Shown: positions 5,813-15,908, counted from the first letter of the stretch. The stretch is 25,689 bases of DNA from Acidimicrobiia bacterium (GCA_041576165.1 JBFGLM010000056.1:1-25689); one strand, 5' to 3'. The notes: generated from the sequence alone by a model not told the origin. Numbers and translations are program-made.

Positions 5813-6186
5813 GACGGCGCTGAAGTGATGGCTTTGGGGGACCCGAGATTTCGGCTCTGCCAGTTCCGAGCCAGCCGGGCGTTTCGCAAGCGACCGCCAG
5901 GTTGTCGCTCGCTGAGAATCAGGCGCCATCGACAGCGGACCGCAGGGTAGGGGCTGCAATCTGCCGGATGGACACCTGTGCCCTAGCGTTGATCTCGTAC
6001 ATCCTTCGCCTGTGGACGCCCCTTCCGCCTCGCCGTCACGTAAGAGTCTCGCGCTCCCGGCCCTGGATGTCCACCAGTTTGTGCCTGCCATTTTGCCGGC
6101 TCCGGCCGCTCCCGGCCGCAGTTCGGCAGCGGGTCGTGGTCGGACGAGCACGCTCAGTGGAGGCGCCCGTGGTGGGTTGGCCCGAT

Positions 6187-6215: not shown

Positions 6216-6251
6216 GCAAGGTACATCCAAGATCCGATCTGTTGATCGTGG

Positions 6252-6380
6252 CCGAAGACAGCCGGTGCCGGCGGAGTCAGATCCGTTCGGCGTAAGTGGT
6301 CGAGCACCCGCCCGCCGAGGTCGAATCCCCGAGGTTCGCTGTCGTAGGCAGCGGGCCTCTTTCTCGTTCGGGGGTTTTCC
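6252..6380 (+). promoter_or_regulatory. L10 ribosomal leader
   Basis: CCGAAGACAGCCGGT...CGTAAG...CCCGCCGAGGT core followed by a long hairpin ending TCGGGGTTTT, upstream of rplJ. Confidence 0.82.
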
Positions 6381-7209: not shown

Positions 7210-7602
7210 ATGGCAAAGATGAAGACCGAGGAGCTCCTCGACATCTTCTCGGACATGACCGTCCTCGAACTCAAAGAGTTCCTTGATGCGTTCGAGGAGA
7301 AGTTCGATGTCACCGCGGCGGCGCCGATGGCCATGGCTGCAACGCCGGTCGGTGCCGACGGAGGCGGAGCCGCTGCGGCAGCCGAGGAAAAGGACGAGTT
7401 CGACGTCGTCCTCACCGCGGCCGGCGACAAGAAGATCCAGGTGATCAAGGAGGTCCGCGGCATCACCAGCCTCGGCCTGAAAGAGGCGAAGGACCTGGTT
7501 GACAACGCCCCCAATCCGGTGCTGGAGAGCGTCTCCAAGGAAGAGGCGGAAGCCGCCAAGGAGAAGATCGAAGCGGTCGGCGGATCGGTTGAGCTGCGCT
7601 GA
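7210..7602 (+). CDS. rplL: 50S ribosomal protein L7/L12
   Basis: [10 protein letters not shown]...[10 protein letters not shown]...[11 protein letters not shown]. Confidence 0.99.
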
Positions 7603-7619
7603 GCCAAATCACGAAGCGA

Positions 7620-7660
7620 ACACAAAGGGGCCGTTCCGTTGGGGCGGCTCCTTTTGTGTG
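7620..7660 (+). terminator. Intrinsic terminator after rplL
   Basis: AAAGGGGCCGTTCC-GTT-GGGGCGGCTCCTTTT hairpin with U-tract. Confidence 0.85.
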
Positions 7661-7706
7661 CCGTCGTGCAGACGGGCAACCGGGCACTGGCACCCCTTTG
7701 TCCCAG

Positions 7707-7752
7707 ATGAGTCAATCGACCCATGGACGGAACTAGGTGGCTCCGGCATAGT
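7707..7752 (+). promoter_or_regulatory. Cassette 1 operator-like box and promoter
   Basis: ATGAGTC-N4-GACCCAT (7707-7724); -35 TGGACG 7724-7729, 17 nt, -10 CATAGT 7747-7752. Confidence 0.7.
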
Positions 7753-7758
7753 GGCACG

Positions 7759-7835
7759 AGGAACGGAGGCGGTTCCGGGCTTCAGCCAGGAGAGTGCACC
7801 CAGCCAGGTTGCATTGGAGTCCGGGACCGCTTCAC
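7759..7835 (+). ncRNA. Putative small RNA, copy 1 (family not recognised)
   Basis: 18-bp basal stem 7766-7783/7816-7833 fully paired with G-U wobbles, 5' bulge AGCCAGGAG, upper stem capped by CAGCCAGG; own promoter. Confidence 0.68.
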
Positions 7836-7933
7836 AGGTCTCCGGGGTTCCGATGGCACTCAGCCCGACGTGGCGCTGGCCGCGGGTGGTGGGGCGGGCT
7901 GGGAGGCATCGCTTCCAGGGGCCGAGATGCTCA

Positions 7934-7979
7934 ATAAGCCGGGCGACCCATAGACGCAGGGTCGCAGGCCGGGCATAGT
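7934..7979 (+). promoter_or_regulatory. Cassette 2 operator-like box and promoter
   Basis: ATAAGCC-N4-GACCCAT (7934-7951); -35 TAGACG 7951-7956, 17 nt, -10 CATAGT 7974-7979. Confidence 0.7.
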
Positions 7980-7985
7980 GGCCGC

Positions 7986-8066
7986 CAGAACCGAAGGCGG
8001 TTCCGGACTCTCGCCAGGGGAGTGCATCTCAGCCAGGTGCACTGGAGTCCGGAACCGCTTTCTTCG
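7986..8066 (+). ncRNA. Putative small RNA, copy 2
   Basis: 19-bp basal stem 7993-8011/8044-8062, bulge CGCCAGGGG, upper stem 8021-8029/8035-8043, U-rich tail TTTCTT. Confidence 0.7.
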
Positions 8067-8087
8067 CGTCCGTCAGCGCCGCGATGA

Positions 8088-8133
8088 ATAAGCCGGGCGA
8101 CCCATGGACGCGTAACGATCGGACCGGCATAGT
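8088..8133 (+). promoter_or_regulatory. Cassette 3 operator-like box and promoter
   Basis: ATAAGCC-N4-GACCCAT (8088-8105); -35 TGGACG 8105-8110, 17 nt, -10 CATAGT 8128-8133. Confidence 0.7.
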
Positions 8134-8139
8134 GCGAAC

Positions 8140-8217
8140 ACGGAACCAGGCGGTTTCGGACTCTCAGCCAGGGGAGTGCATCAGCCAGGGTGCATTGGAG
8201 TCCGGAACCGCTTTTTC
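8140..8217 (+). ncRNA. Putative small RNA, copy 3
   Basis: 17-bp basal stem 8148-8164/8197-8213, bulge CAGCCAGGGG, upper stem 8175-8182/8189-8196 with AGCCAG loop, TTTTT tail. Confidence 0.7.
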
Positions 8218-8323
8218 CGCGTTTGGGTCGTTCATGTCGCCGTGGCTCGCCGCGCGCCACGGTCGGCATCCCGGGCCCGTGAGGCCTCGGGCTGGGCCTC
8301 GCACCGAGTCCTCAGATCTGCCC

Positions 8324-8353
8324 TTGACCTCGATCGCGAGTGCGTTGTATCGT
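8324..8353 (+). promoter_or_regulatory. Distal rpoBC promoter candidate
   Basis: TTGACC, 18-nt spacer, TATCGT. Confidence 0.6.
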
Positions 8354-8500
8354 CTTTTCCACAAGAGGCGGGTAACGCCCGCCGGTAATGACGTGTTGTA
8401 ACGGTGGCTGGCGACTCCGCAGCAGGCGACCTTCGGTTGCCGGGCAGGAGTTCGAGGCCCGCACGGCCGACGAACCGGCCGGACACATTAGTAGAACACG

Positions 8501-8538
8501 TTGTCCATTTAGGACAAGGTAGCCGCGTGTGCTATCTT
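8501..8538 (+). promoter_or_regulatory. Proximal rpoBC promoter candidate with a palindrome over the -35 region
   Basis: Extended -10 TG-C-TATCTT (8530-8538); TTGTCC-N5-GGACAA at 8501-8517. Confidence 0.5.
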
Positions 8539-8588
8539 GTCGTTTCGTCGTCTGCACGTTCCTAACCCTGGGCCCTTAGGAGGAATCG

Positions 8589-11500
8589 TTGGCTGTAGCC
8601 CGCGTCGCCGAGCGTCTGTCGTTCGCGAAAATCCCGGAAGTTCTCCCGCTCCCTGACCTACTTGCTGTTCAGCACGAATCGTTCCATTGGTTCCTCGAAG
8701 AGGGACTCGCCGACATCTTCGACCAGATTTCACCGATCGAGGATTTCTCCGGCAGCCTGGCGCTCGAACTGACCGATCACCGCTTCGGTGATCCGCTCCA
8801 GTCGATCGAAGAGTGCAAAGAACGAGACGCCAACTACTCGCGGCCGCTGTTCGTGACTGCGCGGTTCGTCAATCGCCAGACCGGGGAGATCAAAGAACAG
8901 CAAGTGTTCCTCGGGGACTTCCCGATGATGACCGGCAACGGCACCTTCATCATCAACGGTACCGAGCGCGTTGTCGTATCACAGCTGGTCCGCTCACCCG
9001 GTGTGTACTTCGATCAGACGCTCGACAAGACCTCGGATGTGGACATTTTCACGGCCAAGATCATTCCCGGCCGCGGCGCGTGGCTTGAGTTCGACACCGA
9101 CAAACGAGACACCATCGGCGTACGGGTCGACCGCAAGCGCCGCCAGTACGTATCGGCCTTCTTGCGAGCGTTGGACATCGCCGACAGCGACGAGGAGATC
9201 CTTGAACTCTTCGACGGTGCCGAGTCGATCCGGATGACGCTCGAGCGTGACACTGCGGTTGACAAAGATGAGGCCCTGCTCGACCTCTACCGCAAACTCC
9301 GACCGGGCGAGCCGACGACTGTGGAGTCGGCCCGGGGTCTCATTCAGACGCTGTTCAAGAACCCCAAGCGGTATGACCTCACCCGAGTCGGTCGGTACAA
9401 GCTCAATCAGAAGTTCGACCTGCCCGACGACTATCGGACGGACGACGGCTTGCTCAGCGAGGAGGACATCGTCGATGCAATTCGGTATCTCGTGCATCTG
9501 CATCAGGGTGAGCAGAAGTTCACCACAACGCGCGGCACGGAAATCGACGTCCGGACCGATGACATCGACCATTTCGGGAACCGCCGCATCCGGACTGTGG
9601 GCGAACTGATCCAGAATCAGGTGCGAGTCGGGTTGACCCGTCTCGAGCGGGTCGTCAAGGAACGGATGACCACCCAGGACCCCGAGTCGATCACGCCACA
9701 GAGTTTGATCAACATCCGCCCGGTGGTCGCCTCCATCAAAGAGTTCTTCGGCACGAGCCAGCTGAGCCAGTTCATGGACCAGCCGAACCCGCTCGCCGGG
9801 CTCACTCACCGGCGCCGGCTGTCGGCATTGGGTCCCGGGGGCCTCTCGCGGGAGCGGGCCGGTTTCGAGGTGCGAGACGTTCATCCCTCTCACTACGGCC
9901 GTATGTGCCCGATCGAGACTCCGGAGGGACCGAACATCGGTCTGATCGGGTCGCTCGCCACGTTCGCCCGGGTCAACCGCTACGGGTTCATCGAGACACC
10001 GTACCGCCGAGTGCAGGACGGCAAGGTCGGCAACAAAGTGGCCTATCTGACTGCAGCCGAGGAGGAGCGGTACGTCATCGCTCAGGCCAACGCGCCCCTC
10101 AGCGAGGACGGGAGCTTCGTCAACGACCGGGTGCTGGTCCGGCGGGCCGGTGGTGAGGTCGACTATGTGACGCCTGCAGAGGTCGATTACATGGACGTTT
10201 CCCCGAAGCAGCTGGTGTCGGTTTCGACCGCCCTGATCCCGTTCCTGGAGCATGACGACGCCAACCGAGCGCTCATGGGCTCCAACATGCAGCGTCAAGC
10301 GGTCCCGTTGTTGCGTTCGGACGCTCCCCTGGTCGGTACCGGCGTGGAGCGGCGGGCCGCACAGGACTCGGGTGACATGGTCATCAGCCCCGTGTCGGGC
10401 GAGGTGACCGAGGTCACCGGCGACCACATCGTCATCAAGGACAAGTCGAACACCAAGCACACCTTCGATCTGAAGAAGTTCGAGCGGTCCAACCAGGGGA
10501 CCTCGATCAATCAGAAACCGATCGTGGTTCCGGGCCAGAAGGTGAAGGAGGGTGAGGTCCTGGCGGATGGCCCCTCAACCGATCTCGGAGAGCTGGCGCT
10601 CGGCCGCAACCTGCTGGTGGCGTTCATGCCGTGGGAGGGCCACAACTTCGAGGATGCGATCATCCTCAGCGAGCGCCTCGTCAAAGATGACACGCTCACC
10701 TCGATCCATATCGAGGAGCACGAGATCGACGCCCGCGACACCAAATTGGGCGCGGAGGAGATCACCCGGGACATCCCCAATGTCGCCGAGGAGGTACTGC
10801 GCGACCTCGACGAGGACGGCATCATCCGGATCGGTGCCGAGGTCGGCCCCGGTGACTATCTCGTCGGGAAGGTCACGCCTAAGGGTGAGACCGAACTCAC
10901 CCCCGAAGAGCGTCTTCTGCGTGCGATCTTCGGTGAAAAGGCCCGCGAAGTCCGTGATACCTCGCTCAAGGTGCCGCACGGTGAGTCGGGCAAGGTCATA
11001 GACGTCAAGGTGTTCCGTCGGGAAGAGGGCTTCGACCTGCCCCCCGGGGTGAACGAGCTGGTCCGGGTGTACGTGGCGAGCCAGCGCAAGTTCTCAGAGG
11101 GCGACAAGCTCTCCGGACGCCACGGCAACAAGGGCGTGATCGCCAAGATCTTGCCCGAAGAGGACATGCCCTTCATGAAAGACGGTACGCCGGTCGACAT
11201 CATCCTGTCGCCGCTCGGTGTTCCGTCTCGCATGAACCTGGGCCAGGTGCTCGAGACGCACTTGGGCTGGGCGGCGGCGCAGGGATGGGAACCCTTCGAT
11301 GACCCGAGTCCGCTGCAAGGAGGGGCCGAGCCCTGGACCAAGGTGGCTACCCCGGTGTTCGACGGGGCTCAGGAGGACGAGATCTCTCAGGTCCTGGCCC
11401 GCACCCTGCCGAACCGGGATGACGAGAAGATGGTCGACGAGAACGGCAAGGCCGTGCTGATCGACGGCCGGACCGGGGTGCCGTTCGATACCCCGATCAC

Positions 11501-11996: not shown

Positions 11997-15908
<3,912 letters not shown>

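Follow-up and report, generated by a model that had tools for sequence, protein, structure and literature searches.

What are the three direct repeats that lie between rplL and rpoB in an uncultured marine member of the Acidimicrobiia, and what could they do? The stretch analysed here, called the window throughout, comprises 25,689 nucleotides (GCA_041576165.1 JBFGLM010000056.1:1-25689) of a metagenome-assembled genome (G000; 5.1 Mb in 161 contigs, 96.5% complete, 7.5% contamination). In it, a 986-nt spacer extends from the end of rplL (7210-7602) to the TTG start of rpoB (8589). The rplL stop is followed by a hairpin and a T run (~7625-7660), which we read as the rplL terminator, and the spacer then carries three paralogous direct repeats with a unit of ~135 nt, each encoding a rod hairpin of roughly 80 nt. 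A sequence-only reading of the window had pointed to a GCCAGG motif displayed twice in each RNA, in a bulge and at the apical loop, and had proposed a bivalent site for a dimeric RNA-binding protein or a duplicated seed. Here, we describe the units as a new candidate small RNA (sRNA) family, of a kind already known, in which the gene occurs in one to three tandem copies and the recognition element, judged from sequence, would be the 5' bulge GCCAGGRGRG.

The three units share one order of parts: a box GACCCAT(G/A)GACG, the last six letters of which resemble a -35 hexamer (T[AG]GACG), a 17-nt spacer that differs in each unit, CATAGT, ~7 nt, the long hairpin and a U-rich stretch (Table 1). The arrangement of box plus -10 element occurs three times in the whole genome, every time at the rplL-rpoB spacer. 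The same -35 box, followed at 17 nt by CATAGT or CAATAT with varying sequence in between, is found in the three window units, in the related genome G010 and at contig ends or joints of the Logan runs X5 and X10, and we infer promoter activity for the unit boxes, which a consensus promoter scan (9-of-12 threshold) missed. The stems are strong and the U tails uneven (UUUUU in RNA 3, UUUCUUC in RNA 2, only UUC in RNA 1); a scan of the plus strand for intrinsic terminators (loop 3-8, at least 5 T in 8) reported none. No further unit copies were found in this genome beyond the three adjacent ones, all other matches having E > 1, and a repetitive or mobile element such as a REP or MITE was ruled out, as dispersed copies are lacking. 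Among the 15 sequencing runs listed for the region there is no RNA run.

In each predicted fold, a basal stem of ~18-19 bp leads to a one-sided bulge (9-10 nt, 5' strand), above which an apical stem of 5-9 bp is capped by a 5-6 nt loop; free energies lie between -41.7 and -49.3 kcal/mol across the three RNAs (z = -4.0 to -5.6). Are these folds kept by selection? In an alignment of four sequences, the three window paralogues and the G010 unit, from which we also built the covariance model R1, 95.1% of the cells pair, and both partners have changed in 5 of 26 pairs, of which 4 belong to the apical helix. When the partners were slid by 1-3 columns as a control, 28-52% of the cells paired and 0-3 pairs showed two-sided changes. 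The Logan run X6 holds a related strain spanning 7600-8262 with 42 substitutions and 5 gaps. Only 3 of the 36 listed substitutions, on which this count rests, fall into the 225 nt of RNA bodies, where 12.2 were expected (P = 4e-4); the 48 nt of promoter boxes carry none, and the 51 nt of promoter spacers carry 5 (3 of them in the spacer of unit 1). RNA bodies and promoter boxes are thus both under purifying selection. One-base deletions at 7801 and 7841 in the same strain argue that the overlapping open reading frame (ORF) 7723-7953 is non-coding. Compensated pairs that are kept and a body under purifying selection point to a structured functional RNA, seen in four sequences of which three are paralogues, and the units appear to behave like small genes under selection.

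Which part of the RNA carries the constraint? On the plus strand, GCCAGG starts at 7785, 7803, 8013, 8032, 8167 and 8184, and CAGCCAGG at 7783, 7801, 8030, 8165 and 8182, with one unrelated match at 14909. The six and five occurrences that had been reported are therefore correct, the bulge of copy 2 reading CGCCAGG. The six matches to CAGCCAGG in the window compare with 1.04 expected, and none of 100 shuffles reached six; genome-wide, the word occurs 526 times on both strands. However, the six GCCAGG instances should not be counted as independent, since they represent two sites in each of three paralogues, and shuffled 75-mers contain a non-overlapping repeated 6-mer in 33-38% and a repeated 8-mer in 2-3% of cases. 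Both motif copies belong to a larger internal direct repeat of ~17 nt, CAGCCAGGG(GA)GUGCAU, which is present twice and is followed by CAGCCAGGGUGCAU in copy 3. Since GUGCAU is self-complementary, such a duplication would create an apical stem with the second motif in its loop, and the apical-loop copy looks like a genus-specific by-product of this event. In partition function calculations, motif 1 in the bulge is predicted to be unpaired (mean P(unpaired) 0.70-0.95). Motif 2 is split: its GCCA is exposed, whereas between one and three letters at its end, (A)GG, take part in the apical stem (mean P(unpaired) 0.49-0.69). The assignment of both motifs to the least-paired parts of the rod hence holds for the bulge, while the apical copy lies only half in the loop.

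The two sites also differ in their conservation. The bulge word GCCAGG and the RGRG after it do not differ among the four full sequences (the three paralogues and G010); the word continues as GCCAGGAGAG in copy 1 and as GCCAGGGGAG in copies 2 and 3, and the letters 5' of it vary (UUCA, CUCUC, CUCUCA, CACUC). The bulge word is intact in all three X6 copies (for the change in copy 1, see Table 1), in a copy-2-like unit that reads CAGCCAGGGGAG in a minor X6 contig and an X10 fragment, and in an X5 copy identical over 8148-8205; this count excludes a second X5 copy (5 differences) and X10 record 3 (2 differences), both unplaced. The loop word is present in copies 1-3 and altered in X6 copy 1. In G010, by contrast, a compensated 10-bp apical stem ends in a CGGG loop, and the other GCCAGG, largely base-paired (mean P(unpaired) 0.32), is found at the 3' junction, and in X10 record 3, a mangrove-metagenome contig, GUGCA is followed by a different apical loop without the GCCAGG word. 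As the loop copy is kept in neither, the two-site display is genus-specific, and the bivalent site that had been suggested is not conserved. What survives of the sequence-only reading is the bulge: GCCAGG and RGRG are invariant as the surrounding stems change compensatingly, making it an exposed, sequence-constrained element that is more conserved than its flanks, whereas conservation of the loop motif stops at the genus. This narrows the target for mutagenesis to the bulge and not the loop.

Is the RNA a common feature of related genomes? The only full homologue that we found outside this genome is in G010, a related uncultured member of the Acidimicrobiia, also upstream of rpoB, where a single unit combines the -35 box of the window units with a 17-nt spacer, CAATAT and a hairpin of like design. 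A DNA search of 40 relatives returned only G010, plus the rpoB leader of G004, and model R1 matched only G000 and G010 among 29 genomes of the family. In 151 genomes of the order, searched with stricter filters, it matched G000 and one 42-nt hairpin in G086 at 28 bits, which by its size and score, uninspected, we read as chance. A search with filters off around rpoB, in 26 genomes of the family and in 5 csrA-positive ones from other families, gave nothing below E = 0.1. In G004 the contig reaches only ~340 nt upstream of rpoB, and no contig of G005 contains rpoB, so that the negative results say little about the spacer in these two genomes. A pattern scan of 185,579 species genomes, biased in that the pattern contained the motif, returned 12 stretches, all spurious except the G010 contig. 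A motif-free scan of JGI metagenomes gave 4 chance stretches, none matching the model, and a looser promoter-box pattern gave 3 extra matches in G004, G005 and G010, none of which precedes an RNA unit and which look coding by eye, without an ORF check. In Rfam 15, the whole window yielded only a tRNA at gathering thresholds; the best hit in 7600-8600 at E <= 10 was a microRNA model (18.2 bits against a gathering score of 57 bits), and the G010 locus gave nothing at E <= 0.01. The Logan run X5 adds a contig with two hairpin copies 380 nt apart, and also a promoter with the same boxes and another 17-nt spacer; X10 adds two fragments with the same boxes. Copy number thus ranges from one in G010 over at least two in the X5 contig to three here, and the candidate family, as far as these sequences go, is so far confined to two genera of uncultured Acidimicrobiia. 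Keyword searches of the literature, at the level of result listings, brought up no report of an sRNA between rplL and rpoB, nor any on sRNAs of Acidimicrobiia. The G010 locus (L012) also shows, on its minus strand, a (GGCTGT)n run at ~1630-1595, just before the sRNA promoter, and after the RNA, at ~1395-1375 and 1320-1300, the boxes ATCGGCTGTAGCTG and ATTGGTTGTAGCCG, which resemble TTGGCTGTAGCC at the rpoB start of the window.

Multicopy sibling sRNAs in tandem are known from LhrC1-5, PrrF1/2, AbcR1/2 and OmrA/B. The units described here resemble these systems in that near-identical short genes stand head to tail in one spacer, that each gene has a putative promoter and terminator of its own, that a motif is repeated within and between copies and that copy number varies among relatives. 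Unlike them, the present RNAs have no sequence or Rfam relationship to the known families, carry the conserved element in an internal bulge instead of a 5' tail or loop, have an element that is G-rich and not C/U-rich, and are known from sequence alone. If the family is real, it adds an sRNA candidate with a clear gene anatomy and evidence of selection to the Acidimicrobiia, which are abundant in marine and sediment samples, and its adjacency to rpoB, variable copy number and co-occurrence with a flagellar fliW-csrA module give concrete hypotheses that are testable in vitro without culturing.

How might such an RNA work? In our reading, the locus consists of three tandem paralogous genes for a hairpin RNA of ~80 nt; each appears to have its own housekeeping-type promoter, and the long stem and U tract of each RNA would serve as its own terminator. 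The conserved functional determinant would be the exposed 5' bulge GCCAGGRGRG, rich in purines and flanked by two helices; the RNA would act in trans, and the bulge would dock and titrate a ligand. The mechanism that we tentatively prefer, without placing firm confidence in it, is thus an RNA acting in trans with its bulge as the docking site of a ligand other than CsrA, which would most likely be a protein. The rigid rod, the position of the motif in an internal bulge, the copy number of 1 to 3 and the absence of complementary sites suggest such docking in trans. Several points count against it. Transcription, the RNA ends, the action in trans and the nature of the ligand are all parts that we infer, and CsrA, the only ligand candidate that can be named, fits poorly. 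The U tail of RNA 1 is weak, which could allow transcription to continue towards rpoB. The comparative evidence is sparse, with one full homologue outside the genome and 3 of the 4 aligned sequences being paralogues. Placing all 6 unlisted X6 changes inside the RNA bodies would reduce the significance of the depletion to P = 0.057. Finally, the prior speaks for another mode of action, as most characterised bacterial sRNAs act by base pairing.

Tandem sibling sRNAs with repeated seed motifs are known, and in a base-pairing sRNA of this type the bulge (in this genus also the loop) would be a seed for C/U-rich CYCCCCUGGC sites in mRNAs, with three copies raising the dose. We consider this possible, although doubtful. 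A conserved contiguous stretch of 8-10 nt is predicted to be unpaired, and Hfq (PF17209) was not found in G000, where at 96.5% completeness its absence is not proven; in other Actinomycetota in which Hfq is not known either, structured-loop seeds are used. However, a seed enclosed in the internal bulge of so stable a rod would be restricted in helix formation. Perfect complements in this genome that involve the bulge or loop reach at most 12-13 nt, nothing beyond chance, the 48-90 12-mers per RNA being near our own rough estimate of a few tens for a genome of 5.1 Mb. Nor is the complement enriched at gene starts, which we took from crude ORF calls of our own: at 2256 start sites there was no enrichment of the complement motif, with CCCCTGGC occurring 32 times in all and 5 times in +0..+25. 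The duplicated seed of the sequence-only reading is thus left with neither a genomic complement beyond chance nor an enrichment of the complement near starts. A more specific form of pairing, in which CAGCCAG would control translation of rpoB by binding UUGGCUG over its TTG start (8589-8595), seems to us very improbable. The proposed 7-nt match with one G-U does exist, and in G010 the start reads UUGGCAG and the second motif GUGCCAG, a single matching A/U swap at a synonymous codon position. Yet a single covarying wobble position arises by accident in about 1 in 3 cases, the G010 motif concerned is mostly paired, and the rpoB start region is an ordinary partner: duplexes with the exposed segment of the three RNAs have energies of -21.6, -20.5 and -25.9 kcal/mol (means -22.9 to -26.0) and rank 1384, 2053 and 692 among 2273 crudely called start regions. 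Likewise, we find it scarcely credible that the RNAs mimic the stalk-base site of 23S rRNA (helices 42-44) and act as a decoy for L10(L12)n or L11, whose genes lie just upstream. The 23S rRNA of the relative G019, used because the rRNA genes are unassembled in G000, reads ACAGCCAGGAGG at this site, a 10-nt identity with the copy-1 bulge, and the rplJ leader (6234-6372) carries ACAGCCGG in a weak L10_leader match. Against this, the site ranks only 7, 25, 28 and 52 of 120 23S windows for copies 1-3 and G010, respectively, another 10-mer matches elsewhere in the 23S rRNA, and no L10_leader match appears at E <= 10 in 7600-8600. The L10 complex needs a kink-turn and an unpaired UAA (PMC4538822), and UAA is present in none of the four RNAs. 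Compared with the L10 leader (RF00557) and 23S helices 42-44, the RNAs share the rplJ-rplL neighbourhood and a CAGCC(A)GG word, but they have no kink-turn, UAA or model match and stand downstream of rplL with promoter-like boxes of their own. The mimic was rejected for its chance-level similarity and the missing UAA; even together, it and the rpoB-start pairing have a very small likelihood.

Two further explanations take up what surrounds the units, namely the neighbouring rpoBC genes and the csrA gene of the same genome. The units could be cis-acting parts of rpoBC, that is, promoter-plus-terminator modules that serve as tunable attenuators or as RNase III-type processing hairpins feeding read-through. 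Their location directly upstream of rpoB is common to G000 and G010, RNA 1 has no good U tail, and the long perfect stems would be expected to be substrates of a double-strand RNase. In E. coli, an attenuator and an RNase III site lie between rplL and rpoB, also in the form of a stable hairpin followed by U residues; here, however, there are three repeated units, each with a conserved promoter-like box and a sequence-invariant bulge, and no homology is expected. Downstream of the units, two plus-strand blocks resembling promoters are kept in G010 and G004, TTGACC-18-TATCGT at 8324-8353 and GTAGCCGCGTG(TG)CTATC(T/C)TGT at ~8519-8545, the latter resembling an extended -10 element. rpoB would therefore be transcribed from promoters of its own that lie between the units and the gene, giving a leader of up to ~240 nt, and this speaks against a role of the units in cis. 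In addition, the 5' leader of only ~7-10 nt leaves no room for an alternative antiterminator fold, and an attenuator would leave the invariant bulge sequence unexplained. A role in cis is in our judgement unlikely.

The same holds for the proposal that the RNAs act as a sponge and sequester this clade's FliW-type CsrA: CAGG(A/G)-type motifs would titrate the dimer, and a spacing of 17-19 nt would suit bridging by a single dimer. A sponge had been suggested by analogy with GGA loops, and the genome does encode csrA (gene C82:10252-10494; PF02599, 89.2 bits, C82:10255-10407), beside fliW and flgL in a flgL-fliW-csrA cluster. Among the 29 family genomes, csrA occurs in four (this genome, G004, G005 and G010), with fliW in this subclade only, and the csrA-bearing subclade is exactly the one that holds the RNA (G000 and G010). 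Moreover, the bulge of all three window copies has an unpaired GGA (mean P(unpaired) 0.47-0.99), the G010 RNA carries ACAGGAUC and CCAGGAUC, and the motifs are 18, 19 and 17 nt apart from start to start, within the range of 10-63 nt (optimum ~18 nt) given for bridging by a CsrA dimer in a 2020 review (PMC7652899). The same review describes ACA and GGA as 100% conserved in SELEX ligands and weak hairpins (<=4 bp) as preferred (PMC7652899). ACA is missing from the sRNA motif, GGA is replaced by GGU or GGG in the loop motif and is absent from the G010 bulge, and the GGA triplets of G010 are paired (mean P(unpaired) 0.01-0.32). Each window RNA hence offers one unpaired GGA and no ACA, in place of the several exposed GGA in an ACA..GGA context that mark a sponge. 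Textbook sites of this kind are carried by the flagellin leaders of the sister genomes G004 and G010, as an AGGGAC-loop hairpin, GAC-AGGGAC-GUC, and as ACAAGGAGGU, with ACAAGGAGG over the ribosome-binding site; GGA-type sites of CsrA in the sRNAs are not borne out. The co-occurrence of RNA and csrA amounts to one phylogenetic event, and 11 csrA-positive genomes of other families in the order gave no match to the RNA model, nor did the rpoB neighbourhoods of 5 of them. Csr/Rsm sponges (CsrB, CsrC, RsmX/Y/Z) are also non-coding, sometimes multicopy and equipped with repeated purine motifs for a dimeric protein (PMC7652899), and a csrA gene and a motif spacing within bridging range are further common points. 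The present RNAs differ in that each has a single unpaired GGA, that ACA..GGA is missing, that the stems are very stable and that the G010 bulge has not kept the GGA, and the csrA here is of the FliW-partnered type. That the three RNAs antagonise a FliW-partnered CsrA in a bacterium of the actinomycete phylum is, in sum, improbable. If true, a protein and an sRNA would antagonise the same CsrA, and GCCAGGRG would be a non-canonical CsrA site; whether FliW and sRNAs act jointly on CsrA in any species is called undetermined in the 2020 review (PMC7652899). The flgL-fliW-csrA flagellar cluster occupies C82:8755-11907 (locus L062) and is followed by a sigma-factor-like ORF, a label that does not come from any search. 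Flagellin proper was not found in the G000 assembly, only flgL; it is present in G004 and G010.

Table 1. Parts of the three hairpin units in the rplL-rpoB spacer (positions in the window; RNA ends inferred; CM, bit score of covariance model R1; X6, changes listed for the related strain)
Feature	Positions	Strand	Description
Promoter-like region, unit 1	7718..7752	+	Box GACCCATGGACG 7718-7729 (-35-like TGGACG), 17-nt spacer, -10-like CATAGT 7747-7752
RNA 1 (ends inferred)	7759..7840	+	Rod hairpin 7766-7833, poor U tail (CUUCACAGG); -41.7 kcal/mol, z = -4.0; CM 87.1 bits
Motif 1, RNA 1	7783..7790	+	CAGCCAGG then AGAG, 5' bulge; mean P(unpaired) 0.95; X6 7791 A>G gives GCCAGGGGAG
Motif 2, RNA 1	7801..7808	+	CAGCCAGG, apical loop and 3' stem strand; P(unpaired) ~1.0 for GCCA, ~0 for GG; X6 lacks 7801 and has 7802 A>T, giving CUGCCAGG
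Promoter-like region, unit 2	7945..7979	+	GACCCATAGACG, 17 nt, CATAGT; sole listed X6 change 7971 (spacer)
RNA 2 (ends inferred)	7987..8066	+	Hairpin 7993-8060 then CUUUCUUC; -49.3 kcal/mol, z = -5.2; CM 92.7 bits; no listed X6 change
Motif 1, RNA 2	8012..8018	+	CGCCAGG then GGAG, 5' bulge; mean P(unpaired) 0.79; one minor X6 and one X10 contig read CAGCCAGG
Motif 2, RNA 2	8030..8037	+	CAGCCAGG; CAGCC in loop, AGG paired
Promoter-like region, unit 3	8099..8133	+	GACCCATGGACG, 17 nt, CATAGT; sole listed X6 change 8115 (spacer)
RNA 3 (ends inferred)	8140..8218	+	Hairpin 8148-8212 then UUUUU; -44.9 kcal/mol, z = -5.6; CM 79.7 bits; single listed X6 change 8147 C>G, 5' leader
Motif 1, RNA 3	8165..8173	+	CAGCCAGGG then GAG, 5' bulge; mean P(unpaired) 0.70
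Motif 2, RNA 3	8182..8190	+	CAGCCAGGG, apical loop AGCCAG

Outside the rplL-rpoB spacer, a few observations concern the upstream ribosomal protein genes and the placement of the genome. The weak L10_leader match on the plus strand at 6234-6372, upstream of rplJ (ATG 6423), scores 20.6 bits against a gathering score of 44 and has conserved CCGAAGACAGC..GCGUAAG..GCCGAGG letters as well as a terminator-like hairpin; it is probably a divergent L10 leader of the actinomycete type that falls below the curated threshold. The rplA-rplJ spacer, with 670 nt, is long and otherwise unannotated, and a structured stretch in it after the rplA terminator (5849-5930, plus strand) gives a sub-threshold nhaA-II match (22.6 bits, gathering 70.4), probably by chance. 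A search for 6C RNA, with a weak control, found none. Over its first 100 residues, RpoB is 79-84% identical to that of three csrA-positive genomes of family f4 and 66-77% identical to that of most genomes of f1, the assigned family, so that the family placement of the genera g1, g5 and g6 may deserve a check.

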